From positions 9,869 through 73,868 of the forward strand of contig JADFYE010000010.1 of NCBI GenBank assembly GCA_015233195.1: DNA of 64,000 nucleotides. Reading direction: 5' to 3'. This document shows, piece after piece, positions 3,159 to 50,846 of this stretch. The position numbers and the translations under genes are program-made. Below the pieces are notes generated by a model. It was not told the origin of the DNA. It was given only the letters and a program-made list of their open reading frames with translations, and searched no databases. Each line of letters opens with the position of its first letter. The stretch's first letter is position 1. Origin of the DNA: Candidatus Omnitrophota bacterium. GTDB taxonomy: Bacteria; Omnitrophota; Gorgyraeia; Zapsychrales; Zapsychraceae.

Positions 3159-3195
3159 AAAAATCCTTTTTGTATTTTAATGATATTTAAATTTT

Positions 3196-3228
3196 TATAT
3201 GGGCACGAAGTATCGTGCCCCTACGCAT
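3196..3228. repeat. GGGCAC hairpin repeat, copy 1 (gggcacga-agta-tcgtgccc + ctacg)
   Basis: 8-bp perfect stem at 3201-3220. Near-identical copies at 18682-18714 and 48587-48618. Confidence 0.85.
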
Positions 3229-3249
3229 ATCAATACTCTATACTATTTA

Positions 3250-8076: not shown

Positions 8077-10100
8077 TTTTTAATTTTTAACGTTTTTACT
8101 TTCTTCATTAAATCCAGTAATTCCGAATTATTCGGGTTCATTTTCAAGCCCTGATCAATAGCTTTTAAAGCTTCATCAAAATTGCCAATATGACCCATTA
8201 ATTTACCTATACCAACATAAGCAGGTACAAACGAAGCATCGACTTTAAGTGCTTTATAATAAAAATCAAAAGCTGGCATTAGCATTTTATGAAAAGCACA
8301 AATATTACCAGCTTTTACTAAAATATCTTTATCCGCAGATTCTTTACTTAGTTTCTCAATCCAAAAATTAATTTTATCCTGCTCATGATTTAAAAAAACC
8401 ATACGAAATATATCAAATTTTATATTTTCATCAGTGGGTTCTATTTCTGAAGCCTTTTCATAAAATTTTTGCGCATTAATAAAATCTTTATTTTTTTCAT
8501 AAGCAAGCGCTAAATTCATAGCCAATATTTTATTTTGCTGACCTAATGCATAAGCCCTGAAAAATTCTTTCACAGCTTCTTCAAATTTACCAGATTCACT
8601 ATAAGCATTAGCAAGATTATTCAAGATATCAGGCTGATTAGGAGACAACTCCAAAGCTTTTTTAAAATATTCAACCGCTAAGTTTAAATTGTTTTCTTTC
8701 GCAGCTAATACTCCTAAATTAGATAAATCTTTCCATCGATCAGATAATTTTACCTTAGCAGCCTTTTGAAATAAATCCTGAGCTTTAGAATAATTTTTTT
8801 CTTTAAAATAGGCTGCAGCCTGAAACGAATCTATTAGCTTAAATTTAGCAGTTGCAATTGTATTTCTCCAAAAATCACAATATACAACTTCATCACCCCA
8901 TATAGCATTCATAACAATGGACTGAGTTATTAATGCAAATATTATGCTTAATATCAAGCCGCCAACTAATATTTTTGAATATCGTCTAAACAAATACAAC
9001 AAAACCCAAGCTACAAAAACAAAAAAACCTATAGAATTAAAACAAAACCAATGCGGTTCCGTAACAATACCAAAACTACTGAATGATAAAGAAGCTAAAC
9101 CCGCAATAACAATTCCAAAAATAAAAACTACTGACAAAACCGCATATATTCTTTTATCATTAACTATAAATTTAAAAATAACTAAACATGCAATTAAAAT
9201 AAAAACCAATAAAACACTTATCAATAACCAAATATCTTGCTTTACTACATCCGTCGCCCATATCAATACAACACCTTTAGGATCCAACAACTGCCCCAAA
9301 TACCAAAACCACGCCTTCGATACAGAAGCTAACCACTGATACGGCGATATACCCATATTCTTATACGAACCTAATATCGAACCGCCTACGTTTGAAAATT
9401 TAGCCCGGAATAATAAAAGTATGCCTAATATTAAAAATAAAACAACCGTGTATTTTATGGTTTGTCGAATAGATAAACGATGAGCGATTAAACAAAGACC
9501 TGCCGCATAGAAAGGTAAAAAATATGCAGTTTCATGACATAAACAAGAAATTAAATACAACAACCCTGCACCTAATATTGAAACACGTTTTATGAATTTA
9601 TCAGAAGTTAATATGCTGCGATGGATTAACCATAAAGAAACTACCATTAATATAAACTGCAATATAAGAACATTAGCAGTTATATAATTCACAAAAATTC
9701 CGTTAATCGGATGGATACAAAACAAAACCGTGCTCAAAACTGCAAGCCAATAATCTTTGAGCAAATCAAATAAAAAAAAGAATATAAAAACACAGAGAAG
9801 AAAAAACAGCAGACAGTTTGTTATATGGTAACCTAGCGGATTATATTGAAACGCATTAAAATATAAAACCTGCATCACACTTCTAATCGGACGAAAATGA
9901 GCAGAAACATTATCCTCTGATAACCCATTCCCCGACGAAAAAGCAAAAAATAAATTCTTTATATTATGTGTGTTGTAATTCGAAACAAAATGATTCGCGT
10001 CATCCATCATGAACGCATTATTTAAACTATTAAAATAAGTCAAGAACACTAAAAAAAATAATACCACTAAAAAAAATATTTTATTTTTAGTTTCGATCAT
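8073..10100 (-). CDS. GT-C (PMT/TMTC-like) membrane glycosyltransferase with C-terminal TPR domain, paralog 1
   Basis: About 400 aa polytopic N-terminus with a loop-1 'MMDD' acidic motif, 'HPINGIFVNYITANV' and 'CHETAYFLPFY'. C-terminal TPR repeats. Confidence 0.7.
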   Translation of the reverse strand: MIETKNKIFFLVVLFFLVFLTYFNSLNNAFMMDDANHFVSNYNTHNIKNLFFAFSSGNGLSEDNVSAHFRPIRSVMQVLYFNAFQYNPLGYHITNCLLFFLLCVFIFFFLFDLLKDYWLAVLSTVLFCIHPINGIFVNYITANVLILQFILMVVSLWLIHRSILTSDKFIKRVSILGAGLLYLISCLCHETAYFLPFYAAGLCLIAHRLSIRQTIKYTVVLFLILGILLLFRAKFSNVGGSILGSYKNMGISPYQWLASVSKAWFWYLGQLLDPKGVVLIWATDVVKQDIWLLISVLLVFILIACLVIFKFIVNDKRIYAVLSVVFIFGIVIAGLASLSFSSFGIVTEPHWFCFNSIGFFVFVAWVLLYLFRRYSKILVGGLILSIIFALITQSIVMNAIWGDEVVYCDFWRNTIATAKFKLIDSFQAAAYFKEKNYSKAQDLFQKAAKVKLSDRWKDLSNLGVLAAKENNLNLAVEYFKKALELSPNQPDILNNLANAYSESGKFEEAVKEFFRAYALGQQNKILAMNLALAYEKNKDFINAQKFYEKASEIEPTDENIKFDIFRMVFLNHEQDKINFWIEKLSKESADKDILVKAGNICAFHKMLMPAFDFYYKALKVDASFVPAYVGIGKLMGHIGNFDEALKAIDQGLKMNPNNSELLDLMKKVKTLKIKN

Positions 10101-10104
10101 TAAA

Positions 10105-12144
10105 TTACCTTTTTAATTCTTTAGCCTGCTTAATCAACAATTCAAACTCTTGGAGATTATTCGTAAATTTTTCTCCCTCACGCCAAACTTTGATCGCATC
10201 ATCAAAACGATTCATATTACCAAGTAACTTTCCTAATTCCATATACACTCTAAAAAACTTTGGATCAACAGTAATAGCTTTATGATAAAAATCTAAAGCA
10301 TCCACAACATAACCAGACTTAGCCAACAGACTGCCAACTGATGTAAGTACGTCAGCAGAACGAAGCTTACTCAATTGAAGCATAAAACTTTTTGCTTTCT
10401 GACTATATCCATCAACTCTTAAATAACAATCCAATAAATTTATTTTGACTTTATCTTGTGATGGATCAACATCAATAACCACCTCATAAAGCGAGGCTGC
10501 CTCAAAAAAATTTTTTTCATTATAATAAACTTGGGCAAGTAATATTTTAGGTTGAATCCAAAAAGGATTAAAATGAATAGCTTCTAAACAGTATTTTTCC
10601 GCTTTTATCAAATCATTCTTTTTGAAATATAAATATCCTATATTTGTATTAATTATTGAAGACTGGGGATTAACCGCATTTGCTTTTTCAAAAAATTCTC
10701 CAGCCTTATCAAATTCATTCCGTTTAATATTAATCAAACCAAGGTTATTATATACCTGCCAATCAACACGGGAACCGTGTAATGACGCAAAATAAAATTT
10801 TTCTGCGTTTTCTATATCATTTTTATCTTGATATACTAATGCCTTATAAAAATCTATTGAAGCTATATTTTTATCTATATTTTGTGACCAATAATCCAAA
10901 TATCTTAAGGGATCTCCCCAAAAATAATTATTTATATGGGCTGCCCACATAAGGCTAAATATAATTGTTAAAATCAACCCTGAAACAACATATTTATTTG
11001 ATTTTTCAAATAATCCACATAAAAATAATGCCAATAAAAAGAAAAACCCTAACGAATTAAAAATTATCCAATGCGGTTCAATCATTACACCATCAATAGG
11101 ATTATAAAATGCCGGTAGTAAAATTACACAAATACTGAACAAAAAAATAAAACCTGCCCATGCAGCTATAAAGTTTTTACGCTTATAAAACCCAAAACAT
11201 ATTAATACAACCGCAAAAATGAAAATTATAAATAATAAACTTCTTAACTCTAAATAATTTGTTACAGCTCTTGTATTCCAGATAAGTACAATACCTTGAG
11301 GATTACACAACTTACTCAAATACCAAAACCAAACCTTTGATAAAACCGCCACATAAGAAAGAAAACCTATTCCTTGATTAGCAACTTTATCTAACACGCT
11401 TATTTTCAAGTCCGCATAAAAAAATCTAAAAAGAATAAATATTGATAAAACAATCCATAAACCTAAAGTTATTTTAAAAGCACTCCCAAAACTTTTCCTT
11501 CGTACAATGATTAAAAATCCTATAATATAAAATGGTAAGAAATAACTTGTTTCATGACACAAGCATGTAAAAATAAACAAAATTACTCCACAAATATGCC
11601 AAAGCCAAGTATTACTTTTTTCGTCCTTATTCGCAAAACATAACATGGTCAATATCATTAAAATGATTTGAACAGTATACACGTTAGCCGTTAAATAATT
11701 GACCAATAATCCATTTATTGGGTGAATAATAAAAATGATAGCGGTTAAAAACGAAACTACCTTATTTTTACTTAAATAGAACCAAAAATAAAATATAATT
11801 AGTGCACATAACCAGAGCAAAACCATATTAAAAATTCGCAAACTTTCTTTATTCAAATGAAATAATTGGTAAGCTACTGCTGGAGTTAAATGCGCAAGCG
11901 GACGATAATAAACCGCCCTTGACCGATCATCAAGATTCAAATTTTTATTTATATCAGGAATAAACTGTAAATAAAAATTTTGAACATTACGTATCTGATA
12001 ATTATCAGTTATCAGAGTATCATCAATCAAAAACTCATTATGAATACTATTAAAATAAGTAGCAAATACAAATCCCAATAATACCAAAGCTGAATATATT
12101 TTATTTCGAATAATAGCTGATACTAAATTTTGAATAAATATCAT
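10105..12144 (-). CDS. GT-C (PMT/TMTC-like) membrane glycosyltransferase with C-terminal TPR domain, paralog 2
   Basis: Tandem paralog of 8073..10100, sharing 'YFNSI.NEF.IDD', 'HPINGLLVNYLTANV', 'CHETSYFLPFY' and 'EPHW..FNS.GFF'. TPR tail. Confidence 0.7.
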   Translation of the reverse strand: MIFIQNLVSAIIRNKIYSALVLLGFVFATYFNSIHNEFLIDDTLITDNYQIRNVQNFYLQFIPDINKNLNLDDRSRAVYYRPLAHLTPAVAYQLFHLNKESLRIFNMVLLWLCALIIFYFWFYLSKNKVVSFLTAIIFIIHPINGLLVNYLTANVYTVQIILMILTMLCFANKDEKSNTWLWHICGVILFIFTCLCHETSYFLPFYIIGFLIIVRRKSFGSAFKITLGLWIVLSIFILFRFFYADLKISVLDKVANQGIGFLSYVAVLSKVWFWYLSKLCNPQGIVLIWNTRAVTNYLELRSLLFIIFIFAVVLICFGFYKRKNFIAAWAGFIFLFSICVILLPAFYNPIDGVMIEPHWIIFNSLGFFFLLALFLCGLFEKSNKYVVSGLILTIIFSLMWAAHINNYFWGDPLRYLDYWSQNIDKNIASIDFYKALVYQDKNDIENAEKFYFASLHGSRVDWQVYNNLGLINIKRNEFDKAGEFFEKANAVNPQSSIINTNIGYLYFKKNDLIKAEKYCLEAIHFNPFWIQPKILLAQVYYNEKNFFEAASLYEVVIDVDPSQDKVKINLLDCYLRVDGYSQKAKSFMLQLSKLRSADVLTSVGSLLAKSGYVVDALDFYHKAITVDPKFFRVYMELGKLLGNMNRFDDAIKVWREGEKFTNNLQEFELLIKQAKELKR

Positions 12145-12150
12145 ATTAAG

Positions 12151-12501
12151 CTATACCGGAATAGTTCTATAAAAACACGATCTTTGGTTAGTGTGGCATG
12201 CAGCATCAACTTGTTCTACTTTAATTAAAAGACAGTCGCAGTCACAATCAAAACGCACTTCTTTGACATACTGAAAATGTCCGGAAGTCATACCCTTTAC
12301 CCAAAATTCTTGTCTGGATCTCGACCAGTAACAGGCTTTTTTATCCGTTAAAGTTCGGCGCAAAGATTCCTGATTCATCCATGCCATCATCAACACTTCA
12401 TTATTCTGCACATCCTGCACAATAACAGGAATAAGACCATCTTTACCATATTTAAGTTGATCAATATTATTTATAGTAACTTGTATTTCTTCAGGTTTCA
12501 T
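12151..12501 (-). CDS. hisI: phosphoribosyl-AMP cyclohydrolase (no HisE domain)
   Basis: 'GLIPVIVQD', '[10 protein letters not shown]', '[16 protein letters not shown]' and '[13 protein letters not shown]...ACHT'. Confidence 0.92.
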
Positions 12502-13253
12502 GCGCGTATCCCAATCCCTTCTTTTTTTAAATATTGTTTCACCTGCCCAATCGTTAATTCTCCATAATGAAAAACTGAAGCAGCCAAAGCCGCGTCAGCA
12601 CTAGTAAGTTTAAACACTTGGGCAAAATCATCTAACTTACCTGCCCCGCCTGAAGCGATAACTGGAATATTTACTGCCCGGCAAACTGCGTCAGTTAAAG
12701 CAATATCATACCCATCTTTAGTTCCGTCAGCATCCATACTAGTCAATAAAATCTCACCTGCGCCTAATTCTTCAACCTGCTTTGCCCACATAACCGCGTT
12801 TTTTCCAGTAGGTATGCGACCGCCATTAATAAATACTTCCCATTTATCACCCACCCTTTTGCCGTCTATAGCGACCACAATACACTGACTTCCAAATTTC
12901 TCAGCAGCTTGGCGAACTAATTCAGGATTTTTTATTGCAGCAGAATTGATAGAAACTTTATCAGTTCCCGCATTTAAAAGTCTGCGTATATCTTCAAGTG
13001 TATTTATCCCCCCACCTACAGTGAGCGGCATAAATACTTTTTCTGCAGTACGATTAACCACATCAATAATAATCGAACGTTTTTCATGGCTGGCTGTAAT
13101 ATCCAAGAATACTATCTCATCAGCACCTGCGCGGTCATAACCTTCTGCCACGTCTACAGGATCTCCAGCGTCGCGTAAATTAACAAAATTAACGCCCTTA
13201 ACCACTCGTCCGTCTTTAACATCCAAACATGGAATTATTCTTTTAGTTAACAT
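12498..13253 (-). CDS. hisF: imidazole glycerol phosphate synthase cyclase subunit
   Basis: '[17 protein letters not shown]', '[13 protein letters not shown]' and 'VIASGGAG'. Confidence 0.95.
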
Positions 13254-13254
13254 A

Positions 13255-14754
13255 TTATTTTAAAATATCAAACAGCCATTCTTGTTTATTATTATGAAGA
13301 TAATTCATAAATTTTTCATCAGTTTTAGTGTCTGTCCACACAATTTTTTTAAACACCTCATCGGATAAAATAAATTTAGCTAGAAAACTTAATTTACGAA
13401 CCGAATATCGCAATACCCTCGCTTCGCCATAAATATTATTATCTTTTATATCTATTGGTATACCTTTATACGCGTGATTAACATAAGCTGAAACATTTTT
13501 ATTTAAACTCACAAATAATATTTGAAGCTCTTTACTTTCTGCATGTATAGCAACGGCATTGTCATATCTATCCAACGCGCCTATTGCAACCATAACAAAA
13601 CACAACATCACAACTACCATTGTTTTAGTTTTTTCTACAAACTGATTTGATTCTTTCAAATATACATCAGCAAAAAACGCGTAACAAACAGCTAATAACA
13701 TAACTGGAAAAACATAATACCTGGGCAACCATAAACGATGTTCTCCCCAAGAAGTTCTAAATATAAATATAATTAGCGTACTGAATAATCCTACAAAGAC
13801 AAAAAACCAAATTTTATTCCAATCAATTTTATTAGAATAATTTTTTATTATAAATATAGCTCCGTAAAAATAACCAAACGAAAAATACTGAAAAGATAAC
13901 AACATTGGGATAACACTAAAAAGAAGAAATCTGCATAAATAATAAAAAGACTGAGAATAATTAGCTATTTTATCTAAAGACCCTCCTCTGCCGATATAGT
14001 GTTCTGAAAAAAATATATTATGCACATTCATAGCATACACCACGATTCCAATCAAAGAACCCATAACATAATATACGAGCAATGACTTATCATTTTTCCT
14101 AACATCTTTCGGAATACAAAGAAAATGAAACGCTATAACATAAAAAATCATAAACATGCCTAACGCGAAAGTAAGCATACTGAGTAAAAATGACAGCATC
14201 CAAACCACACGCCAAATCCAATTAGGACGTAAAGCATTTTTATATTGAGCAAAAAATACTAATAAAACGCCTAATAGACAATATAAAATATGCGCGTCAG
14301 TAAAAATAAAAACCGCTCTATCAAAAAGATTTGAAGCTGCAAATATTGAACATCCCAACAGCGCCCCATTTGATGAAACCTTTAGTAGCTTTAACAAATG
14401 ATATAAAACAACAATTACCCCAATCGTAACCAAAAATGTTAGTAAATGAAAAAATTCAGTGTAAAGCCAAAAATTTTTGTAAGAAAAAAGATATAAATAC
14501 TTCATTATTGGTATTACATGTTCATTGTGCGCGCTGAATATCCACCCCCATTCAGTATTATCCCGTATAGAGCTAACCATTTTGTCTAAATAGTCGATAT
14601 CATCAACCATATAAGGAATATGAATGGCTGGTAAAACTGAGTAAAGGTAAACTGAAGATATAATTAACAACATAAATGTATAAATGCGTTCAGTATTTTG
14701 CTTTGCCATTAAAAATACTAAAACACCAATCAGCGAGAAAACACAAAAATTCAT
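13255..14754 (-). CDS. polytopic membrane protein, GT-C-like (no TPR tail), embedded in the his operon
   Basis: 499 aa with more than 10 hydrophobic segments. Early-loop '[10 protein letters not shown]' acidic motif. 1-nt gaps to both hisA and hisF. Confidence 0.5.
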
Positions 14755-14755
14755 A

Positions 14756-15475
14756 TTAAATTTCCTTTAATTTTTTCAAATCAATCTTGCCTTCATAAAT
14801 CGCTTTGCCGGTAATAACCCCGACCACACCTTTTGATTCCAAAGTTTTGATCTGCTTTATATCGTCTATACATGACACCCCACCTGAAGCAATAATATTT
14901 ACTCCTTGCACGCTTTCTGCCAATGCTTTCAAAGCCGCAATGTTCGGACCAGTCAGCATACCGTCACGAGCAATATCAGTAAAAATAATCCATTTAACGC
15001 CTATCGTCTGCAATTTTTTCACAAAATCTGTTGCAATTATATCTGAGGTTTCTGCCCAGCCATGCTTAGCCACCATGCCATTATGACAATCTAAACTGAC
15101 TGCGATTTTGTCGCCCCAAATAGCAATTATCTCCCGTAAAAAATCCAGATCTTGAATAACTTTAGTCCCTAAAATAACCCGGCTAATACCACCGTCAATC
15201 AAACTCTTTATATCATCTTTGGTCCGTATCCCGCCGCCCATCTCAATTGGGATCTTAACTGTCTTTGCAATATCAAGAATGACCTTTTTATTACGCATCA
15301 CTCCGTATTTAGCGCCGTCAAGATCAACTACATGCAGCCACTTGGCGCCTTCTTTTTCCAAATACTGTGCCATAACCAATGGGTCGCGGCTGTATTCAGT
15401 GACCTGGTCGAATTTGCCTTGAGTAAGGCGTACGACTTTGCCGTCTTTAATATCTATCGCTGGGAAAATTATCAT
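14756..15475 (-). CDS. hisA: ProFAR isomerase
   Basis: 'IIFPAIDIKDGKVVRL.QG', 'LHVVDLDGA' and 'IASGGVS' typical of HisA. Confidence 0.93.
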   Translation of the reverse strand: MIIFPAIDIKDGKVVRLTQGKFDQVTEYSRDPLVMAQYLEKEGAKWLHVVDLDGAKYGVMRNKKVILDIAKTVKIPIEMGGGIRTKDDIKSLIDGGISRVILGTKVIQDLDFLREIIAIWGDKIAVSLDCHNGMVAKHGWAETSDIIATDFVKKLQTIGVKWIIFTDIARDGMLTGPNIAALKALAESVQGVNIIASGGVSCIDDIKQIKTLESKGVVGVITGKAIYEGKIDLKKLKEI

Positions 15476-15510
15476 GCATATCCTATCTTATATACATTTT
15501 TCAATTTGAT

Positions 15511-15938
15511 CCCTTCTACCCTTTGGGGAGAAGGTTAGGATGAGGGGATAATTTCTTCAATTTTATTTTCAATAACTTCGTAAACCCCATCCATGTTTAT
15601 CAGAACATCGTTATTTGCAAACCGCAAAATTTTTATGCCTTGAGATTCTAAATATTTACTTCGAGTTTTATCTTTACGCTCACCAATATCTTCATAATGC
15701 TGACCCCCATCTATTTCAATTGCTAATTTAATTGATGGAGCATAAAAATCGATTATGTAATTCCCGATTGAAAATTGTCTCCTAAATTTAATATTTTTAA
15801 TTTGTTGATTTCTAACATACAACCAAATTAATTTTTCAGCGTCTGTTTGCTCTTTACGAAGATCTCGACAATAATCAATATTCGGTCTTTTTGGCATTAC
15901 CCCTCACCCTAACCCTCTCCCCAGAGGCTGGAGAGGGG
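15511..15938 (-). mobile_element. DUF559 endonuclease gene bracketed by inverted ~38-nt hairpin repeats (cassette-like insertion in the his operon)
   Basis: Left arm 15511-15547 is the reverse complement of right arm 15900-15938 at most positions. The gene fills the interval almost exactly. The same repeat occurs solo elsewhere. Confidence 0.45.
15535..15897 (-). CDS. DUF559 (Vsr/restriction-endonuclease-fold) protein
   Basis: 'TDAEKLIW..VRN', 'FRRQFSIGNYIIDFY', 'LAIEIDGGQH' and 'GIKILRFANNDV' match the DUF559 pattern. Confidence 0.85.
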   Translation of the reverse strand: MPKRPNIDYCRDLRKEQTDAEKLIWLYVRNQQIKNIKFRRQFSIGNYIIDFYAPSIKLAIEIDGGQHYEDIGERKDKTRSKYLESQGIKILRFANNDVLINMDGVYEVIENKIEEIIPSS

Positions 15939-15961
15939 ACTTTCCCATCTATCTATACTCT

Positions 15962-16564
15962 CTACTCTATACTAATAAAGTTTTTAATTATTTCCAACCC
16001 TACTTCCTGGCTTTTTTCTGGGTGGAATTGGACTCCAAAAATATTATTCGAACATATCGACGAGCAATAATCTATACCATAATTAGTGGTTGTTGCAATA
16101 ATACTCTGATCCTTAGGTTTTACATAATACGAATGACAAAAATATACATTCGACTGATCTGGAATATTTTTAAAAATAGCGCAATTCTTATTAGAAATAT
16201 TTAACTGATTCCATCCCATTTGCGGCACTTTTAATTTAGTAAATTTTTCAACGCTACCTTTTAATATTCCCAGCCCCTCAACTTTACCGCCTTCATAACC
16301 AACTTCAAACAATATCTGAAATCCCAAGCATATACCAAAAAACGGTTTATTCTCGTTGACCACATTTTTTATCACAGGAATAAGCCCGAGTTCAGTTAAT
16401 TTTTCCATAGCTGGACGCATCGCGCCTACCCCGGGAAGCACGATTTTTTGAGCAGCTTTAATATCACTGGCTTTTTGCGTAACTACAGTTTCTGCTCCGG
16501 CTTTTTCAAAAGCCTTTTGCACGCTGCGTAAATTACCCATGCCATAGTCGATGATTGCAATCAT
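15962..16564 (-). CDS. hisH: imidazole glycerol phosphate synthase glutaminase subunit
   Basis: 'IAIIDYGMGNLRSV', 'LPGVGA', catalytic 'GICLGFQ' and 'FGVQFHPEKS'. Confidence 0.94.
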   Translation of the reverse strand: MIAIIDYGMGNLRSVQKAFEKAGAETVVTQKASDIKAAQKIVLPGVGAMRPAMEKLTELGLIPVIKNVVNENKPFFGICLGFQILFEVGYEGGKVEGLGILKGSVEKFTKLKVPQMGWNQLNISNKNCAIFKNIPDQSNVYFCHSYYVKPKDQSIIATTTNYGIDYCSSICSNNIFGVQFHPEKSQEVGLEIIKNFISIE

Positions 16565-16567
16565 GTG

Positions 16568-17179
16568 TTAATCAATTATACCTTTTGTCGATGGAACAGA
16601 ATCTGGTCTTGCTGGATTGATCCGGGTTGCTTCATGCAAAGCCAAACCCAAGGCTTTAAACGCAGCCTCTAAGTTGGTATGCAGATCTTCGCTAGTTCCC
16701 TCGATCTTTACGTTAACAGTAGCGCCGATATTATGCGCGAAAGATTCAAGGAAATGTTCAAGGTAAGCCATAGTATAGCCATCTTCATTTTTAATATTCA
16801 CTTTATCCATATTTTCAATGGTCAAAGTCAAATAACCCCGACCGCTAATATCAACCACTGCCCGTCCTAAAGTAGACTCCATCGGAGCATATGCAGAACC
16901 AAAACGTTTAATCCCTTGCATTTCACCCAAAGCTTTTTTAAACAATTTGCCTAACACTATACCAATATCTTCATTAGTATGATGGATATCAATTTCCAAA
17001 TCAGCTTTCTTCACTGCCAATTCCAAATCAAAACAAGCATGGAACGCGAACAGATCCAACATATGGTCGAGCAAACCAATATTAGTCTTGATCTTACTCT
17101 TGCCCCGCCCATCAATATTTATTGACGCGGTAATTTCAGTTTCTTTACTTTTTCGCTCCAGCTGCGCTTTTCGTTCCAT
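16568..17179 (-). CDS. hisB: imidazoleglycerol-phosphate dehydratase
   Basis: 'HMLD', 'HHTNEDIGI' and 'HNIGA/HFLESF' IGPD motifs. The track start 17227 is a GTG inside the repeat (translated 'PSPASGERARVRG'). ATG 17179 ('MERKAQLERK') is preferred. Confidence 0.92.
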   Translation of the reverse strand: MERKAQLERKSKETEITASINIDGRGKSKIKTNIGLLDHMLDLFAFHACFDLELAVKKADLEIDIHHTNEDIGIVLGKLFKKALGEMQGIKRFGSAYAPMESTLGRAVVDISGRGYLTLTIENMDKVNIKNEDGYTMAYLEHFLESFAHNIGATVNVKIEGTSEDLHTNLEAAFKALGLALHEATRINPARPDSVPSTKGIID

Positions 17180-17183
17180 ATTT

Positions 17184-17221
17184 CCCCTCACCCTTGCCCT
17201 CTCCCCAGAGGCTGGAGAGGG
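17184..17221. repeat. 38-nt CU/GA hairpin repeat (cccctcaccc..ccctctcc..ggagaggg)
   Basis: One of 7 copies: 15511-15547, 15900-15938, 17184-17221, 21835-21871, 21897-21933, 41684-41722 and 50543-50575. Confidence 0.9.
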
Positions 17222-17246: not shown

Positions 17247-17423
17247 ACAAATTTTTAAAAATTAAAAGGCGCAGGTATTTAAGCGGACGTTGATAATTCG
17301 AGCGGGCACGGTTTGGACGAGTTTTATCGTCCAAGAGCGAGAATTATCTTCGAGCGTAGTTTAGTCTCGCAGGGACTAGCAAGCGTTCCGCGAAATACCG
17401 AAGACTTTTATCTAAAAATTTGT
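17247..17423. repeat. ~170-nt branched-hairpin intergenic element, copy 1 (candidate structured RNA or MITE)
   Basis: Terminal inverted repeats acaaattttt/aaaaatttgt. Nested helices aaaag.c/g.ctttt, ggtattt/aaatacc, gcgga/tccgc and gataattc/gaattatc. Two tip hairpins. Confidence 0.85.
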
Positions 17424-17438
17424 TAATTATATCACTTT

Positions 17439-18662
17439 TTACTTAAATCTAACCTTGACCGATTCAGAATGTTTCTCCAATCCTTCCAAACTCGCAATCT
17501 GAATTATAGCATCTTTTACCTTTTCCAAAGCCTTTTTTGAATACGAAATAACATGACTCTTTTTCATAAAATGATCAGTGCCTAGACCAGAAAAATACTT
17601 TGCAGATCCTAAAGTCGGCAGAACATGACTGGGTCCTGCAGCATAATCCCCTAAAGCTGTTGGACTGTACGGTCCCAAAAATATCGCCCCAGCATTTATT
17701 ATACGTTTAGCAATAACATTTGGATTATTAGTCATAATTTCTAAATGTTCAGGCGCTATTTTATTAGCAATATCAGCAGCTTCCTCAATATTTTTCGCTA
17801 ATACACCATATCCAGCCGGCACACGATTACGCATTTGTTTCAATAATTGTTTTGAAGTTGAAATCAAAATTGCTAATCCACCCAAATGCTCTATCTGCCC
17901 TTCCATATCTGCAGCAATAAAATCCGGATTAGAATGACGGTTAGCAATGATCGCTAACTCCGACGGTCCAGCTAACATATCAATATCCACAAACCCAAAA
18001 ACCTGACGTTTCGCTTCAGTAACATACATATTACCCGGACCAACAATTTTATGCACCCTAGGTATAGTCTTAGTACCTAAAGCCAAAGCCGCGATCGCTT
18101 GCGCTCCTCCAACTTTATAAATTTCATTCACCTTTAATAAATTCGCAACAGCCAATACATAAGGATTAACATGACCATTTTTATTCGGTGGAGTCATGAT
18201 AACAATACGTTTAACACCTGCGACTTTAGCTGGGATTACTGTCATATATACCGTCGACACTAACGGAGCAGTGCCTGCTGGAATATAAATACCAACCGCG
18301 TCCAAAGGTAAAATTGTTTCTCTTAATATAACCCCTTCTTCAGCTTTAACAAAACATGGACTCTGTTTATGAGTCTTGTAGAACGTAGTCACGTTCTTAA
18401 TTATCATTTTTAAATTTTCAACAAAATCAGTCGTGATATTCTGGAACGCAGCGCTTATCTCGCTTTCAGGCACCCGCAAATCTTTGGCTGTCAGCTTAAC
18501 TCCGTCGAACTTACGAGTATATTTAATCACCGCGTCATCGCCCTGCAAACGCACATCTTCGATTATTTGACGGACTTTCTCGCCCAAGCTTCTTTTATGT
18601 ACTTGAACATCACGGTTATAAATATCTTGTAAACTTTTTCCGGTTTGAGTCAGAATTTTCAT
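17439..18662 (-). CDS. hisD: histidinol dehydrogenase
   Basis: 407 aa. 'GGAQAIAALA.GT', 'IVGPGN.YV..AK', 'AGPSE' and 'EH' motifs. Confidence 0.93.
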   Translation of the reverse strand: MKILTQTGKSLQDIYNRDVQVHKRSLGEKVRQIIEDVRLQGDDAVIKYTRKFDGVKLTAKDLRVPESEISAAFQNITTDFVENLKMIIKNVTTFYKTHKQSPCFVKAEEGVILRETILPLDAVGIYIPAGTAPLVSTVYMTVIPAKVAGVKRIVIMTPPNKNGHVNPYVLAVANLLKVNEIYKVGGAQAIAALALGTKTIPRVHKIVGPGNMYVTEAKRQVFGFVDIDMLAGPSELAIIANRHSNPDFIAADMEGQIEHLGGLAILISTSKQLLKQMRNRVPAGYGVLAKNIEEAADIANKIAPEHLEIMTNNPNVIAKRIINAGAIFLGPYSPTALGDYAAGPSHVLPTLGSAKYFSGLGTDHFMKKSHVISYSKKALEKVKDAIIQIASLEGLEKHSESVKVRFK

Positions 18663-18681
18663 ATATTTGCTCGTTTAATTT

Positions 18682-18714
18682 TATTTGGGCACGAAGTATC
18701 GTGCCCCTACGAAT
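18682..18714. repeat. GGGCAC hairpin repeat, copy 2
   Basis: gggcacgaagtatcgtgccc at 18687-18706. The conserved 'cctacg' tail contains the alaS stop codon. Confidence 0.85.
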
Positions 18715-21376
18715 TTTTTCTATCGTCTATCTTCTTCTTTGTTATTTGATAAGCAGCGTCAACAGCTCTATCTAAATTTTTTGTATCCTTGCTTCCAGCC
18801 TGCGCCATTTGTGGTCTGCCGCCGCCTTTACCACTAAATAAATCAGCTGCGTCTTTAATAAGCTCATTCGCATTTAAGCCTTGTTTCACCAGATCATCTG
18901 AAACTGTTATCAAAATTGTAGCACTATCTACTGATCTGGCTCCTAAAATCGATACTGACGACTTAACTTTTTGTTTTATCAAATCTGATAACTTACGTAG
19001 AATATTTATATCAACGTCTTCTAAAACCTGCACAACAATCTTACTGTCTTTAACCTGCGTTCCTTTTTGAATAATCTGATCTATGCCAGATTTTACCGCC
19101 TCAAACTTAAATTGTTCTAACTGTTTTTCAAGATCCTTAACCCGAGCGGATTGAGCAATAGTTTTATCTGCCAATTCTGTTACCGGACATTTAAATAAAT
19201 CAGCCAATTTATCTAACGTGCTTTCCTGCTCTTCAACAAACATAACTGCGTCCATACCAGTCTTAGCTTCAATCCGACGGATGCCCTGTGCGATCGCACT
19301 CTCTCCCACAATTTTAAATAAACCAATTTCACCTGTTGAATCCAAATGTGTACCACCGCAAAATTCTTTTGAATAATCACCAATAGAAATAACTCTGACT
19401 ACATCGCCGTATTTTTCCGCAAAAAATGCTAAAGCACCAGTTGATTTAGCCTCTGTAATAGGCAAGAATTCTTTGGTAACGCAGTCACAAGCTAAAATAT
19501 ATTCATTCACTCTGCGTTCAACTTTAAGTAAGTCAGCTCTTGTAATAGCTTGGTGATGTGTAAAATCCAAACGTAAACGATCATCGGAAACATACGAACC
19601 TTGCTGTTGAACATGCGTGCCTAAAATTTCCCTCAAAGCAGCTTGCAAAAGATGAGTTGCAGTATGATTACGCATAACTGCCCAGCGTCGATCAATATCA
19701 ATTTCAGCTGCCACTAAATCACCAACCTCGAACTTTCCTTTTTCTACCACACCCAAATGCAAAAACACTTCTGAAATTTTCTGAGTATCAGTGATCTTTA
19801 AAATATTTTCGCCTTTACTAATATATCCAACATCGCCAATCTGCCCGCCGGATTCAGCATAAAAAGGTGATCGATCTAAAACTATTTTTGCCTGATCCCC
19901 TTGTTTAATTTCATGAACTGGTTTATTATCCTTAAATATTCTCAAAATCGAATCTGTGGTCTTAAAATGTTTATAACCAGTAAAATCCGTCTTAGGAATA
20001 TTTAGCTCTAAAGTATTATTAGTAAATACATCGCCAGTCATTTTGCTCGATGCCCTGGATTTTTCCTGCTGCTCTGCCATTAAATGATCAAACTCGTTTT
20101 TTACCGAAGAAAAAAATGAGCTGTCATTTCCAAACACTTTAATCAAAGGCTCTTTCATGGTCTCTAAAGTCAAACCATACGTGTCACGGAAATTAAACAA
20201 TATTACTCCTACTTCTTTGTGCGCCAAATTTACAGCTAATCCCTTTTCTTTAATTTTAACCAATTCTTTTTCAAATTCCGGTATGCGTTCTTTCCTTAAC
20301 TTTATATAACCAGCCTCAATATTTTTAACTAAATTCTCAATGTCTTTATGCTTAGCTTTTATCTCAGGATATTGATCTGCCATAGCTTCGATCACAGAAG
20401 GTATTAATTTATAAACACAAGGTTCATGCTTACCGCTGCGGATTGCTATATCAGAGATAGTGATAATCAATTTTTTCATGATATAACCACGTCCTTCATT
20501 AGAAGGAATTACCCCGTCTGAAATACCAAAAGTAACTGCCCGGATATGATCAGCCATAACCCGTTTTTCCCGCAAAGACAATTTCGCGTTTACATTCTGA
20601 TCAATTGATTTTAAAATCGGTTCAAACAAAGTAGTATCAAAATTATTATGTTTACCCTGCATTAAAGCAGTTAAACGTTCCAAGCCCATACCTGTATCAA
20701 TGTTCTTATTGGGTAATGGTTCCAAAACCCCTCCGTCTTTACGCTCAAACTGTGTAAATACCAAATTCCAAATTTCACAAAAACGTCCCATTTCATCGTC
20801 TGGGTCTTTGGGCGCGTTTTTAATTCCTTTTGTTTCCCATTCATAATCAAAAAATATTTCAGAACAAGGACCACACGGACCATTCGGACCATTAAGCCTA
20901 GCATTAGACGGCCAAAAATTACTTTTATCGCCTAAACGAAAAAGTTTTATATCTTTAATACCTACTTCTTTAAGCCAAATTTGTTCAGCTTCTTTGTCTT
21001 CTTTATTTACTGATACCCATAATTTTTCCGAAGGAATGCCTAATTCTTTGGTCAAGAATTCCCACGCCCAGAAAATCGCCTCGCGTTTAAAATAATCTCC
21101 AAAAGAAAAATTACCCAACATCTCGAAAAAAGTATGATGAAAGTCGGTCTTACCTACCTCGTCCAGATCATCAGTACGCAAACATTTTTGAGCAGTAGCT
21201 GCTCGTCTGAAATCAGTAATATCCCCTAGAAATTGGCGTTTGAATTGCTGCATACCTGCAGTAGTGAACAAAACAGTTGGGTCATCTTTAGGCACTAATG
21301 AATCGCTTGCAATAACCTTATGCCCTTTAGAAGCAAAAAAATTCAAATATTTTCTGCGGATTTCGCTAGTCGTCAT
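18707..21376 (-). CDS. alaS: alanine--tRNA ligase
   Basis: 889 aa. 'FTTAGM..FK', 'QKC.R..D...VG', editing-domain 'HTATHLL' and 'CGGTH'. C-terminal DHHA1-like region. Confidence 0.96.
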   Translation of the reverse strand: MTTSEIRRKYLNFFASKGHKVIASDSLVPKDDPTVLFTTAGMQQFKRQFLGDITDFRRAATAQKCLRTDDLDEVGKTDFHHTFFEMLGNFSFGDYFKREAIFWAWEFLTKELGIPSEKLWVSVNKEDKEAEQIWLKEVGIKDIKLFRLGDKSNFWPSNARLNGPNGPCGPCSEIFFDYEWETKGIKNAPKDPDDEMGRFCEIWNLVFTQFERKDGGVLEPLPNKNIDTGMGLERLTALMQGKHNNFDTTLFEPILKSIDQNVNAKLSLREKRVMADHIRAVTFGISDGVIPSNEGRGYIMKKLIITISDIAIRSGKHEPCVYKLIPSVIEAMADQYPEIKAKHKDIENLVKNIEAGYIKLRKERIPEFEKELVKIKEKGLAVNLAHKEVGVILFNFRDTYGLTLETMKEPLIKVFGNDSSFFSSVKNEFDHLMAEQQEKSRASSKMTGDVFTNNTLELNIPKTDFTGYKHFKTTDSILRIFKDNKPVHEIKQGDQAKIVLDRSPFYAESGGQIGDVGYISKGENILKITDTQKISEVFLHLGVVEKGKFEVGDLVAAEIDIDRRWAVMRNHTATHLLQAALREILGTHVQQQGSYVSDDRLRLDFTHHQAITRADLLKVERRVNEYILACDCVTKEFLPITEAKSTGALAFFAEKYGDVVRVISIGDYSKEFCGGTHLDSTGEIGLFKIVGESAIAQGIRRIEAKTGMDAVMFVEEQESTLDKLADLFKCPVTELADKTIAQSARVKDLEKQLEQFKFEAVKSGIDQIIQKGTQVKDSKIVVQVLEDVDINILRKLSDLIKQKVKSSVSILGARSVDSATILITVSDDLVKQGLNANELIKDAADLFSGKGGGRPQMAQAGSKDTKNLDRAVDAAYQITKKKIDDRKNS

Positions 21377-21828
21377 ATTTGGTCAATTACTTTCTTGATC
21401 GACGAGAAACCAAAACCCCGTCGTAATAAAAAATTATAAATACGTTGTTTGAATTTATCATTATCGGAGTGAACGCCATGCTGCAGTTTACGGTCTACTA
21501 ATGAACGGATCATTGCAAGTTCATCGTATTCCTCGCTGGCAAAGCCTAAAGTCTTTTTTAAAATTTCTTTATCAATACCCTTATCGAGCAATTCTCGTCT
21601 GATCCGGTTTATGCCAAAAGGCTTATTTAAACGCGAATTCACCCATGCCTTAGCAAAATCCTCATCATTGACCAAACCGGTGTTCTTAAAATATTCAATA
21701 GTCTGGTCTATAACTGATAGATCAAATTTTTTCTCTTTAAGTTTTGCCTTTAACTCGTATTCACTCCGCGGCCGATAATTCAAGAGCCGGTAAACTGCGT
21801 TTTTTGCTGACGATAAATCATTTTTCAT
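21373..21828 (-). CDS. recX: recombination regulator RecX
   Basis: 151 aa helical repeat protein ('YLNYRPRSEYEL..KL', 'FGINRIRRELLDKGI') between recA and alaS. Confidence 0.8.
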   Translation of the reverse strand: MKNDLSSAKNAVYRLLNYRPRSEYELKAKLKEKKFDLSVIDQTIEYFKNTGLVNDEDFAKAWVNSRLNKPFGINRIRRELLDKGIDKEILKKTLGFASEEYDELAMIRSLVDRKLQHGVHSDNDKFKQRIYNFLLRRGFGFSSIKKVIDQI

Positions 21829-21834
21829 TTTTAT

Positions 21835-21933
21835 CTCTTCTCCCCTCCGGGGAGAAGATTAAGATGAGGGGTTTTAATAATTTTTATTTTTTAATTCCCC
21901 TCACCCTGCCCTCTCCCCATAGGTTGGAGAGGG
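21835..21933. repeat. inverted pair of the 38-nt hairpin repeat with a 25-nt AT-only spacer (gene-less counterpart of the DUF559 cassette arms)
   Basis: 21835-21871 (ctcttctcccctccggggagaagattaagatgagggg) and 21897-21933 (cccctcaccctgccctctccccataggttggagaggg) have the same relative orientation as the arms at 15511 and 15900. Confidence 0.85.
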
Positions 21934-41683: not shown

Positions 41684-41722
41684 CCCCTCACCCTAACCCT
41701 CTCCCCATAGGCTGGAGAGGGG
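41684..41722. repeat. 38-nt CU/GA hairpin repeat
   Basis: cccctcaccctaaccctctccccataggctggagagggg. On the minus strand it ends GAGGGG, 7 nt before the TPR gene ATG. Confidence 0.9.
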
Positions 41723-41773: not shown

Positions 41774-41948
41774 GCAAATTTTTTATATTAAAAGACGCAG
41801 GTATTTCAGCGGACGTTGATAATTCGAGCAGGCACGGTTCGTACATGCTTCACCGTACGAGAGCGAGAATTATCGTCGAGCGCAGTTAGACTAGCCGGGG
41901 CTAACCAGCGTTCCGCAAAATACCTAAGTCTTTTAACCAAAAATTTGC
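41774..41948. repeat. ~170-nt branched-hairpin intergenic element, copy 2
   Basis: TIR gcaaattttt/aaaaatttgc. P1 aaaagac/gtctttt. Tip hairpins tcgtac/gtacga and gttag/ctaac. Confidence 0.85.
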
Positions 41949-41954
41949 TAATCC

Positions 41955-48582: not shown

Positions 48583-48586
48583 TTTT

Positions 48587-48618
48587 TATTTGGGCACAAA
48601 TTATTGTGCCCCTACGAA
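48587..48618. repeat. GGGCAC hairpin repeat, copy 3
   Basis: gggcacaa-atta-ttgtgccc at 48592-48611. It carries a compensated G-C to A-T change relative to copies 1 and 2. Confidence 0.85.
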
Positions 48619-48638
48619 TAACTATATTCTTTTACAAT

Positions 48639-50542: not shown

Positions 50543-50575
50543 CCCCTCACCTAACCTCTCCCACAAAGGGAGAGG
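50543..50575. repeat. 38-nt CU/GA hairpin repeat (shorter variant)
   Basis: cccctcacctaacctctcccacaaagggagagg. Its minus-strand GAGGGG lies 6 nt before the dapB ATG. Confidence 0.85.
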
Positions 50576-50622: not shown

Positions 50623-50791
50623 ACAAATTTTTTAAATAAAAGTCGAAGGTATTTAAGCGGACATTGGTAATTCGAGCGGGCACGGTTCGTACGCCAAAAG
50701 CGTACGAGAGCGAGAATTACCGCGAGCGTAGTTTAACACGCTGGGTTAAACAAGCGTTCCGCGAAATACCGAAGACTTTTAAAAAAATTTG
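50623..50791. repeat. ~170-nt branched-hairpin intergenic element, copy 3
   Basis: P1 aaaagtc/gactttt. P4 ggtaattc/gaattacc, a double compensatory change relative to copies 1 and 2. Tip hairpins tcgtacgc/gcgtacga and gtttaac/gttaaac. Confidence 0.85.
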
Positions 50792-50846
50792 CCCATCCGA
50801 CATCTATCCTCCCAAGGACACATGAATTTTAAACTATTCATATACC

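Follow-up and report, generated by a model that had tools for sequence, protein, structure and literature searches.

BoxC was first described in the 1992 report of the envM (now fabI) sequence (PMC4666352, its reference 46), was renamed PIT element and later TM_ECO, and occurs in E. coli as well as in over 260 further genomes (PMC4666352). The BoxC literature comprises Bergler 1992, Hoyne and Maher 2000 and 2002, and Holder et al. 2015 (PMC4666352). Oligonucleotides of the E. coli repeat form a very stable purine-motif intrastrand triplex in vitro, as seen by circular dichroism and nuclear magnetic resonance, and such triplexes form in DNA and not in RNA (PMC4666352 and its introduction). These triplex motifs (TMs) are often inverted doublets and are tied to local genomic instability (PMC4666352), and PIT elements have neither promoter nor terminator activity (PMC4666352, citing Hoyne and Maher 2002). 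The origin and spread of BoxC repeats are unexplained, and Holder et al. found no transposase or integrase remnants or mobility functions near the motifs (PMC4666352). Here, we describe a 64,000-nt stretch of Candidatus Omnitrophota DNA (assembly GCA_015233195.1, contig JADFYE010000010.1, positions 9,869 to 73,868; the window), in which two inverted copies of a BoxC-like motif frame a gene for a 120-aa DUF559 nuclease between hisH and hisA. DUF559 is a large family, the function of which is mostly unknown. Both components were known already; the link between gene and repeat appears to be new. No published DUF559-BoxC link was found in the searchable literature, outside which many subscription papers lie, and prior notice is possible.

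Each copy of the repeat consists of a pyrimidine arm, a complementary purine arm, a spacer of 2-3 nt (usually TTA) and a G-rich third block. All seven copies in the window passed a TM scan for these three blocks, with C.G*G and T.A*A/T triads and short loops. Moreover, the copy upstream of the nuclease gene, hereafter the 5' arm, contains GGGAGAGGG-TTA-GGGTGAGGG, which is identical to TM_ECO type A (Table 1 in PMC4666352). By its sequence, the window repeat is the BoxC/PIT/TM_ECO intrastrand-triplex motif. A preliminary description of this DNA, made from the letters alone, had read it as a hairpin repeat; that reading has to be replaced by the known motif (PMC4666352) with its third, mirror-repeat block. 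Among 139 informative arms from the related loci described below, the third block was the mirror of the purine arm (with T permitted opposite A) in 104 and a direct repeat of it in 6. Because this mirror rule is the rule of purine-motif triplexes, and such triplexes form only in DNA, the constraint on the third block acts on DNA. RNA folding z-scores of single repeat copies ranged from -2.1 to +0.1 and were unremarkable; thus, a plain hairpin is not what stands out. We considered and rejected an RNA element: no Rfam family reached its gathering threshold in the window, matches around the cassette were at chance level, and the triplex rule is specific to DNA. The purine arm and third block together (GGGG-AGA-GGG-TTA-GGG-TGA-GGGG) also make up a canonical four-tract G-quadruplex motif, at 15901-15925 and in every BoxC-type copy; a quadruplex was considered and excluded by Holder et al. 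for the E. coli oligonucleotides.

The nuclease gene and its two arms are laid out as follows.

15535-15897, minus strand: DUF559 ORF (open reading frame), a Vsr-like / EDxHD-like PD-(D/E)XK endonuclease of 120 aa (Pfam PF04480, E 1.7e-34)
15901-15937, minus strand: 5' arm, a TM (nhmmer E 5e-13; TM scan)
15512-15547, plus strand: 3' arm, an inverted TM (nhmmer E 1e-10; TM scan)
15496-15511, plus strand: outer flank of the 3' arm (ATTTTTCAATTTGATC; alignment with the flank of a gene-less doublet)

On the gene strand, the blocks of the 5' arm are CCCTCTCCA-gcctctg-GGGAGAGGG-tta-GGGTGAGGG. The arm ends in GGGTGAGGGG, which is followed by TA and then by the ATG of the DUF559 gene; the distance from arm to ATG is 2-3 nt, and the G-rich third block occupies the Shine-Dalgarno position of the gene. 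The 3' arm, on the plus strand, is CCTTCTACCC-ttt-GGGGAGAAGG-tta-GGATGAGGGG, and the complement of its TTA spacer is the TAA stop codon of the gene, which ends, on the gene strand, in ATT ATC CCC TCA TCC TAA (IIPSS*) with the stop inside this arm. When the left arm (15510-15547) is reverse-complemented, it agrees with the right arm (15900-15938) at 32 of 39 positions; a profile of repeat copies recovered both from the 64-kb window with the E-values listed, and a 26-nt core of the repeat occurs four times in the window, with none expected from shuffled sequences. The cassette arms differ by one coordinated change that spans all three blocks, i.e. C to T in the pyrimidine arm together with G to A in the purine arm and G to A in the third block. 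Thus, the differences between the arms preserve the structure through compensating changes. The preliminary description had stated that the DUF559 gene separates hisH from hisA, that its boundaries coincide with two inverted repeat copies, that the left arm encodes the last codons and the stop, and that the right arm starts just upstream of the ATG; all of this was borne out.

The repeated unit may include the outer flank of the 3' arm; in a pairwise alignment of 15495-15560 with 21820-21885, i.e. of the cassette with a gene-less doublet elsewhere in the window, 14 of the 16 flank positions were identical. As a candidate for a target-site duplication, only a direct repeat (GTATAGATAGATGGG / GTATATAAGATAGGA) was seen, which is weak and imperfect and lies in AT-rich DNA a few nt beyond the arms. 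The GC content of the DUF559 ORF is 30% and that of its third codon positions (GC3) is 21%, against a GC3 of 28-40% in neighbouring genes; the window comes from an AT-rich (36.5% GC) Candidatus Omnitrophota metagenome-assembled genome (MAG). A scan for promoters and terminators around the cassette gave no terminator-like site, and promoter-like sites without enrichment.

To place the cassette among related his operons, as the preliminary description had proposed, we compared the hisH-hisA junctions. The sister MAG GCA_015233115.1 (locus L097), the hisA of which is 82% identical, has the gene order alaS-hisD-hisB-hisH-hisA-hisF-hisI-TPR and is syntenic with the window. In this genome, hisH and hisA overlap by ATGA (...aaaatATGAtcatt...) without a cassette, and no TM was detected in the 10.7 kb of the locus. 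In more distant his operons (L081, L082 and L089), hisH and hisA are 4-32 nt apart. In total, these sequence comparisons support that the cassette in the hisH-hisA junction is an insertion. Other cassettes lie between other gene pairs: pheS and pheT in an Afipia MAG, nuoCD and nuoE in a Nitrospiraceae genome, murG and murC in a Planctomycetia genome, and paaD and paaZ in Deinococcus.

We surveyed one genome per GTDB species and obtained 80 loci with relatives at 44-60% identity; retrieval used a 15-sequence alignment, as a broad 45-sequence alignment was too divergent. The loci span Omnitrophota, Nitrospirota, Planctomycetota, Patescibacteria, Chloroflexota, several classes of Proteobacteria and further groups. 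When the two gene flanks were aligned as inverted repeats, the score was above the maximum of 72 offset controls in 63 of the 80 loci (median 39 versus 17). The gene with its terminal inverted arms is a unit that recurs across phyla and in different operons. The strict TM scan detected an upstream motif in 55 loci, an inverted downstream motif in 64 and both in 48. TM density was 5.8 per kb at the gene boundaries versus 0.33 per kb elsewhere in the same loci, i.e. 17 times higher, and the BoxC-like arm class accompanies the DUF559 gene in 15 phylum-level groups.

In loci with an unambiguous start codon, the upstream motif typically lies 0-10 nt before the ATG, and the spacer of the downstream motif often contains the stop codon, which explains why many database homologues have C-terminal tails such as PHLNPLPSGERG. 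The 3' arm is always ...GGA-TTA-AGGTGAGGGG and carries the stop, and the arm-specific differences recur across phyla; hence, the unit travels or persists as a whole. The arm sequence depends on the clade, e.g. CCCCCCTTT/AAAGGGGGG/GGGGGGATT versus TCTCCCTCTT/AAGAGGGAGA/AGAGGGAGTT, while the three-block architecture is constant. One Patescibacteria MAG contains two cassettes with different arm types (JBBUGP010000033 and JBBUGP010000017; L036 and L075). Six of the 80 DUF559 ORFs are disrupted. About 70% of the cassettes are co-oriented with their neighbours, which is near the expectation that we assume for neighbouring bacterial genes in general. TMs likewise flank DUF559 genes that are more distant (37-43% identity), in Deinococcus psychrotolerans (L095) and Azospirillum lipoferum (L094); in the former, the geometry is reversed relative to the clade of the window, with hairpins facing inward and third blocks outward.

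The DUF559 protein matched PF04480 with 118.4 bits (cut-off 20.6) over profile positions 5-108 of 109, and it is 100% identical to a MAG protein at NCBI. No further Pfam domain was found in the 120-aa ORF, only DUF559 and related PD-(D/E)XK families being matched, and the Vsr family was not among the Pfam matches at E <= 0.01. The sequence matched the DUF559 protein of known structure, PDB 3HRL, with E 7e-17, and the family profile matched the homing endonuclease I-Bth0305I (3R3P) with E 2e-5. A Foldseek search with an AlphaFold model (pLDDT 87) returned 3HRL first (E 6e-8, TM-scores 0.71/0.90) and 3R3P second (E 1e-4, TM-scores 0.66/0.80); matches to the Vsr structures 1VSR and 1CW0 were weak (E 0.13-0.14). 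By family profile and model, the closest characterised structural relative is I-Bth0305I. Residues D50, E61, D63, H67, D76, R79 and R92 are invariant across 45 homologues, and the first five parallel the Vsr/EDxHD active site described in PMC3239194. The model consists of an N-terminal helix pair (residues 7-31) and the nuclease core, and has no separate DNA-binding domain; therefore, recognition of DNA structure, or of a short repeated motif by a multimer, is plausible. The immediate neighbours of the gene are hisH and hisA, and not a cytosine-5 methyltransferase.

The window contains seven TMs and one DUF559 gene; neither tblastn nor a profile search of the six-frame translation detected further DUF559 remnants in it. 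Besides the two arms, the copies are three solo TMs and one gene-less inverted pair, as established by profile and TM scan, and the copies without a gene that the preliminary description had reported are thus present.

17185-17221, minus strand: solo TM, 5 nt upstream of the hisB ATG (17179)
41685-41721, minus strand: solo TM between uvrA and the gene of an 830-aa TPR protein, 8 nt upstream of the ATG of the latter
50543-50575, minus strand: diverged solo TM between dapA and dapB, 6 nt upstream of the ATG of the latter
21836-21933: gene-less TM doublet between recA and recX (Pfam), with TM(+) at 21836-21871 and TM(-) at 21898-21933 (nhmmer, TM scan, alignments)

The third blocks of the doublet point towards each other, with an AT-rich spacer of 26 nt (21872-21897) between them. 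The doublet matches the cassette minus its gene in geometry, in both arm subtypes and in the 16-nt outer flank, and the 5' arm is nearly identical to the solo copies of its own genome. Gene-less doublets could have arisen from cassettes by deletion, or could be target sites that are empty. Of the five minus-strand TMs, four end 3-8 nt before the ATG of a long ORF (hisB, the 830-aa TPR protein, dapB and DUF559). A portable ribosome-binding site was rejected as a general role of the repeat; in other genomes, solo TMs lie upstream of starts in 6 of 112 cases versus 11% of random positions, and the pattern is local to the window.

The DUF559 gene of E. coli K-12 is ycjD, which has a BoxC copy (CCCCTCGCCCC-TCT-GGGGAGAGGG-TTA-GGGTGAGGGG) about 170 nt downstream in the ycjD-fabI spacer; the founding BoxC copy of 1992 was presumably this one. 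K-12 has 23 TMs and one ycjD (PMC4666352), and E. coli genomes have a median of 18 BoxC-like sequences. Among strains of E. coli, TM loci show an unusual degree of rearrangement (PMC4666352), and E. coli doublets have their third blocks inward with a 16-nt spacer. Between sapF and fabI, the ycjD/BoxC segment is allelic to the eefRABCD operon, and ycjD is conserved in phylogroups A, B1 and C (bioRxiv 10.1101/2024.08.01.606150). In the K-12 locus (L090, 5190-5430), a degenerate motif at the ycjD stop is followed by a partial duplicate of the last ~60 nt of ycjD and then by the full BoxC. In strains with eefRABCD in place of ycjD (L091), the fabI-proximal junction is without BoxC.

In our proposal, positions 15510-15939 (430 bp) form a compact selfish nuclease cassette, the enzyme of which would act on its own repeats, and we regard this proposal as evenly balanced between right and wrong. 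The cassette would have entered the hisH-hisA junction of an Omnitrophota genome and is probably co-transcribed with the his operon, because no promoter or terminator signal was found around it and PIT elements are without such activity (PMC4666352). The third block of the 5' arm would then serve at the position of the ribosome-binding site, and the spacer of the 3' arm would supply the stop codon. The nuclease would recognise and nick or cut its own type of repeat, either as duplex sequence or as a hairpin or triplex extruded from single-stranded DNA. Repair of the break on a template bearing the gene would carry the gene into gene-less inverted doublets, amounting to homing between dispersed repeats, and solo repeats, doublets and local rearrangements would be left behind by these same breaks. 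The nuclease activity on repeats, the repair-mediated copying and a causal role in spreading BoxC-like repeats are what we infer from this arrangement. A wider claim, that DUF559 nucleases are the cognate enzyme of BoxC/PIT-type repeats and that the gene with two inverted TMs represents a new minimal class of autonomous mobile element, is put forward tentatively and with less confidence than the cassette itself.

If this were true, the end of an element would be a structure-forming DNA motif and its sole protein a Vsr-like hydrolytic nuclease; the solo motifs and doublets, which number in the thousands across E. coli, cyanobacteria, Neisseria and many uncultured phyla, would be its non-autonomous progeny or homing sites, and the genomic instability reported at TMs would also be explained. 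At about 430 bp, the cassette, if mobile, would be among the smallest autonomous DNA elements known. The link between gene and repeat gives DUF559 a testable role as a nuclease acting on triplex- or hairpin-forming repeats, and gives BoxC an enzyme partner, a second case of the logic of REP (repetitive extragenic palindromic) sequences and their RAYT (REP-associated tyrosine transposase) with different parts. The link is directly testable in E. coli, with ycjD and 23 BoxC copies, and a structure-specific nuclease may be of practical interest.

Several observations weigh against the proposal. With regard to mobility, the copy number is low, with one DUF559 gene in 64 kb; a second paralogue (MBF0484649.1, on a 19-kb contig, 76% identity) is probably from another contig of the same MAG, judged only by accession numbers about 600 apart, and no near-identical copies that would signal recent movement were found among the copies compared. 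In Afipia, Bradyrhizobium and related alphaproteobacterial MAGs (L031, L049, L054, L058 and L071), the gene lies directly upstream of the same conserved gene start, that of pheT (confirmed by Pfam in L054), which argues for long vertical retention. There were no relatives in viral contigs (IMG/VR), and plasmid matches were mostly to megaplasmids or chromids. To our knowledge, a hydrolytic PD-(D/E)XK nuclease is incapable of strand transfer, and the homology that the shared arms provide for repair amounts to only about 35-40 bp. With regard to the partnership, 17 of the 80 loci are without clear arms, some of them with DUF559 fused to larger proteins, and protein similarity agrees with arm class only to about the degree to which it agrees with host phylum. 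In E. coli, TMs are mostly at fixed loci across 56 strains (PMC4666352), BoxC-like matches are present in all 5,426 genomes searched, and lineages reported to have eefRABCD in place of ycjD, e.g. uropathogenic E. coli 536, lack ycjD at sapF-fabI, an absence that concerns this locus, DUF559 being possible elsewhere. Finally, the Caulobacter DUF559 protein VsrA is functionally tied to a cytosine methyltransferase and to 5-methylcytosine/T:G repair (PMC12907096). Thus, of the selfish or homing-type cassette in the preliminary description, the anatomy, the insertion, the recurrence and the I-Bth0305I-like fold hold; cleavage and homing are putative, and signs of recent mobility were not seen, the copy number being low and near-identical copies lacking.

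The stable position of the gene in the alphaproteobacterial loci also fits an explanation modelled on RAYTs, in which TMs proliferate like REPINs, a domesticated, mostly single-copy and vertically inherited DUF559 protein processes them in trans, and the framing of the gene is that of RAYT genes by REPs. The repeats outnumber the gene, by 7 to 1 in the window and 23 to 1 in E. coli K-12 (PMC4666352), and inverted doublets occur, as REPINs do (PMC3116915). However, the enzyme is a hydrolytic PD-(D/E)XK nuclease without obvious strand-transfer chemistry and not an HUH transposase. Moreover, the unit spans about 15 phylum-level groups, with proteins that are 50-60% identical and positions that are not homologous, the sister genome does not have it, and some of its copies are pseudogenes; together, these points fit horizontal spread better than domestication, and we consider the RAYT-like explanation unlikely. 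The role of VsrA in Caulobacter, together with the Vsr-like fold, speaks instead for a host enzyme that repairs mismatches or structures, the TMs being expression or insulation elements or sites resolved in replication, with nothing selfish or mobile involved. Such a role would suit the conservation of ycjD within the three E. coli phylogroups (bioRxiv 10.1101/2024.08.01.606150) and the TMs 3-8 nt upstream of the hisB, TPR-gene and dapB starts, which lie as if supplying a ribosome-binding site. It accords poorly with a third block that obeys DNA-only triplex rules and not an RNA-level constraint, with the inactivity of PIT elements as promoters or terminators (PMC4666352, citing Hoyne and Maher 2002), and with solo TMs elsewhere that are not enriched upstream of starts. 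No methyltransferase gene adjoins the DUF559 gene, the Pfam matches of its product at E <= 0.01 do not include Vsr, neither the sister genome nor other related his operons carry the cassette, and the positions of the cassette in unrelated operons vary by lineage. We judge a housekeeping role to be somewhat less probable than the RAYT-like one.

The last explanation that we considered, and the least probable of the three, takes the repeats as pre-existing host elements, the inverted doublets of which are landing sites for a free-standing nuclease gene that moves by an unrelated route. Gene-less doublets of the same geometry do occur in the window and in E. coli, the 5' arm closely resembles the solo copies of its own genome, and insertion sequence (IS) elements are known to target REPs (PMC1525189). 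Nevertheless, start and stop codons are built into the arms alike across phyla with conserved arm-specific differences, two cassettes with different arm types reside in one Patescibacteria MAG, and the sister genome has a clean junction with neither gene nor repeat at the site. In comparison with all three, the selfish cassette remains the explanation that we favour.

Around the cassette, the minus-strand order is hisD, hisB, hisH, DUF559 ORF, hisA, a 499-aa membrane ORF, hisF and hisI; the hisH stop lies 23 nt ahead of the 5' arm.

17439-18662, minus strand: hisD
about 16568-17179, minus strand: hisB
15962-16564, minus strand: hisH, upstream neighbour (Pfam GATase E 6e-27; tblastn to related his operons)
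14756-15475, minus strand: hisA, downstream neighbour (Pfam His_biosynth E 5e-76)
13255-14754, minus strand: 499-aa membrane ORF
12498-13253, minus strand: hisF
12151-12501, minus strand: hisI

The operon and its surroundings contain further features of note. The 499-aa ORF between hisA and hisF encodes a multi-pass membrane protein without a Pfam match and has a GC content of 30%; it is absent from the sister genome, in which 8 nt separate hisA from hisF, and from further related his operons, and by these comparisons it is a second insertion in the his operon. An element of ~180 nt occurs three times (17250-17427, 41776-41952 and 50625-50798) with 82-87% identity and in one orientation, each time between co-directional genes (hisD and hisB, uvrA and the TPR gene, dapA and dapB) and 30-80 nt from the TM just ahead of the following start codon. 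The element folds into one long imperfect palindrome (57 predicted pairs, 7 with compensatory changes), has no Rfam match and looks like a MITE (a miniature transposable element with inverted repeats). A short repeat, also in three copies (3192-3239, 18678-18725 and 48583-48630), consists of the hairpin GGGCACGAAGTATCGTGCCC followed by CTACG, or, on the other strand, of CGTAG followed by the hairpin; one copy lies in the alaS-hisD spacer, and the family resembles GTAG-tagged REP elements. A similar inverted pair (GTAGGGGCGATC...) is present in the alaS-hisD spacer of the sister genome (L097, 1773-1921). The hisD-hisB spacer of that genome (L097, 3170-3610) holds a truncated ORF for a 23S_rRNA_IVP (four-helix-bundle) protein (Pfam E 8e-22) framed by 34-nt inverted repeats (GTATGTAGTATGTGGTATG...), and its hisB-hisH spacer (L097, 4243-4370) holds a gene-less inverted doublet of the same repeat. 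From its sequence, this unit is a different cassette of a small gene between inverted repeats that colonises the same operon. Downstream of hisI, the repeats at 9258-10086 and 11278-12106, 2020 nt apart, reflect two tandem paralogous genes for TPR proteins, a pair that is also present in the sister genome.

The cassette shares with BoxC/PIT/TM_ECO the three-block architecture, the near-identical GGGAGAGGG-TTA-GGGTGAGGG, the intergenic location and the inverted doublets with inward third blocks, the spacer being 16 nt in E. coli and 26 nt here. By contrast, the repeats in the earlier studies were without an associated gene, whereas here, in an AT-rich Omnitrophota MAG (36.5% GC), the TMs frame a nuclease gene, as they generally do in this DUF559 clade. 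With REP/REPIN-RAYT systems (PMC2817692, PMC3116915), the cassette has in common that inverted copies of a short structured repeat of the genome frame an enzyme gene present once, with many solo copies and inverted doublets elsewhere. It differs in its enzyme, which is a PD-(D/E)XK DUF559 nuclease where RAYT is a Y1 HUH (IS200-like) transposase; in its repeat, which is a three-block triplex motif where REP is a GTAG-tagged hairpin; in its start and stop codons, which lie within or against the repeats; and in its copy number, which is apparently lower.

EDxHD homing endonucleases such as I-Bth0305I (PMC3239194) and free-standing phage homing genes have a homologous Vsr-like catalytic domain and are likewise small, selfish-looking ORFs between conserved genes, present in some relatives and absent from others. 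The cassette, in contrast to them, is on a bacterial chromosome and not phage-borne, has no intron or intein and, with 120 aa in all, no NUMOD or helix-turn-helix DNA-binding domain, and is framed by structured inverted repeats that are absent from the classic homing genes. The PD-(D/E)XK fold and the conserved acidic/His active site are shared with Vsr and Caulobacter VsrA; unlike for Vsr, there is no Pfam Vsr match and no linked cytosine methyltransferase, and the Foldseek match is weak (E 0.13). Finally, IS200/IS605 elements and MITEs resemble the cassette in being very small, in having structured or inverted ends and in having derivatives that are gene-less and not autonomous, but they differ from the cassette, which has no HUH or DDE transposase and, at most, a weak candidate for a target-site duplication, and the ends of which, unlike the distinct left and right hairpins of IS200/IS605, are inverted copies of one motif.

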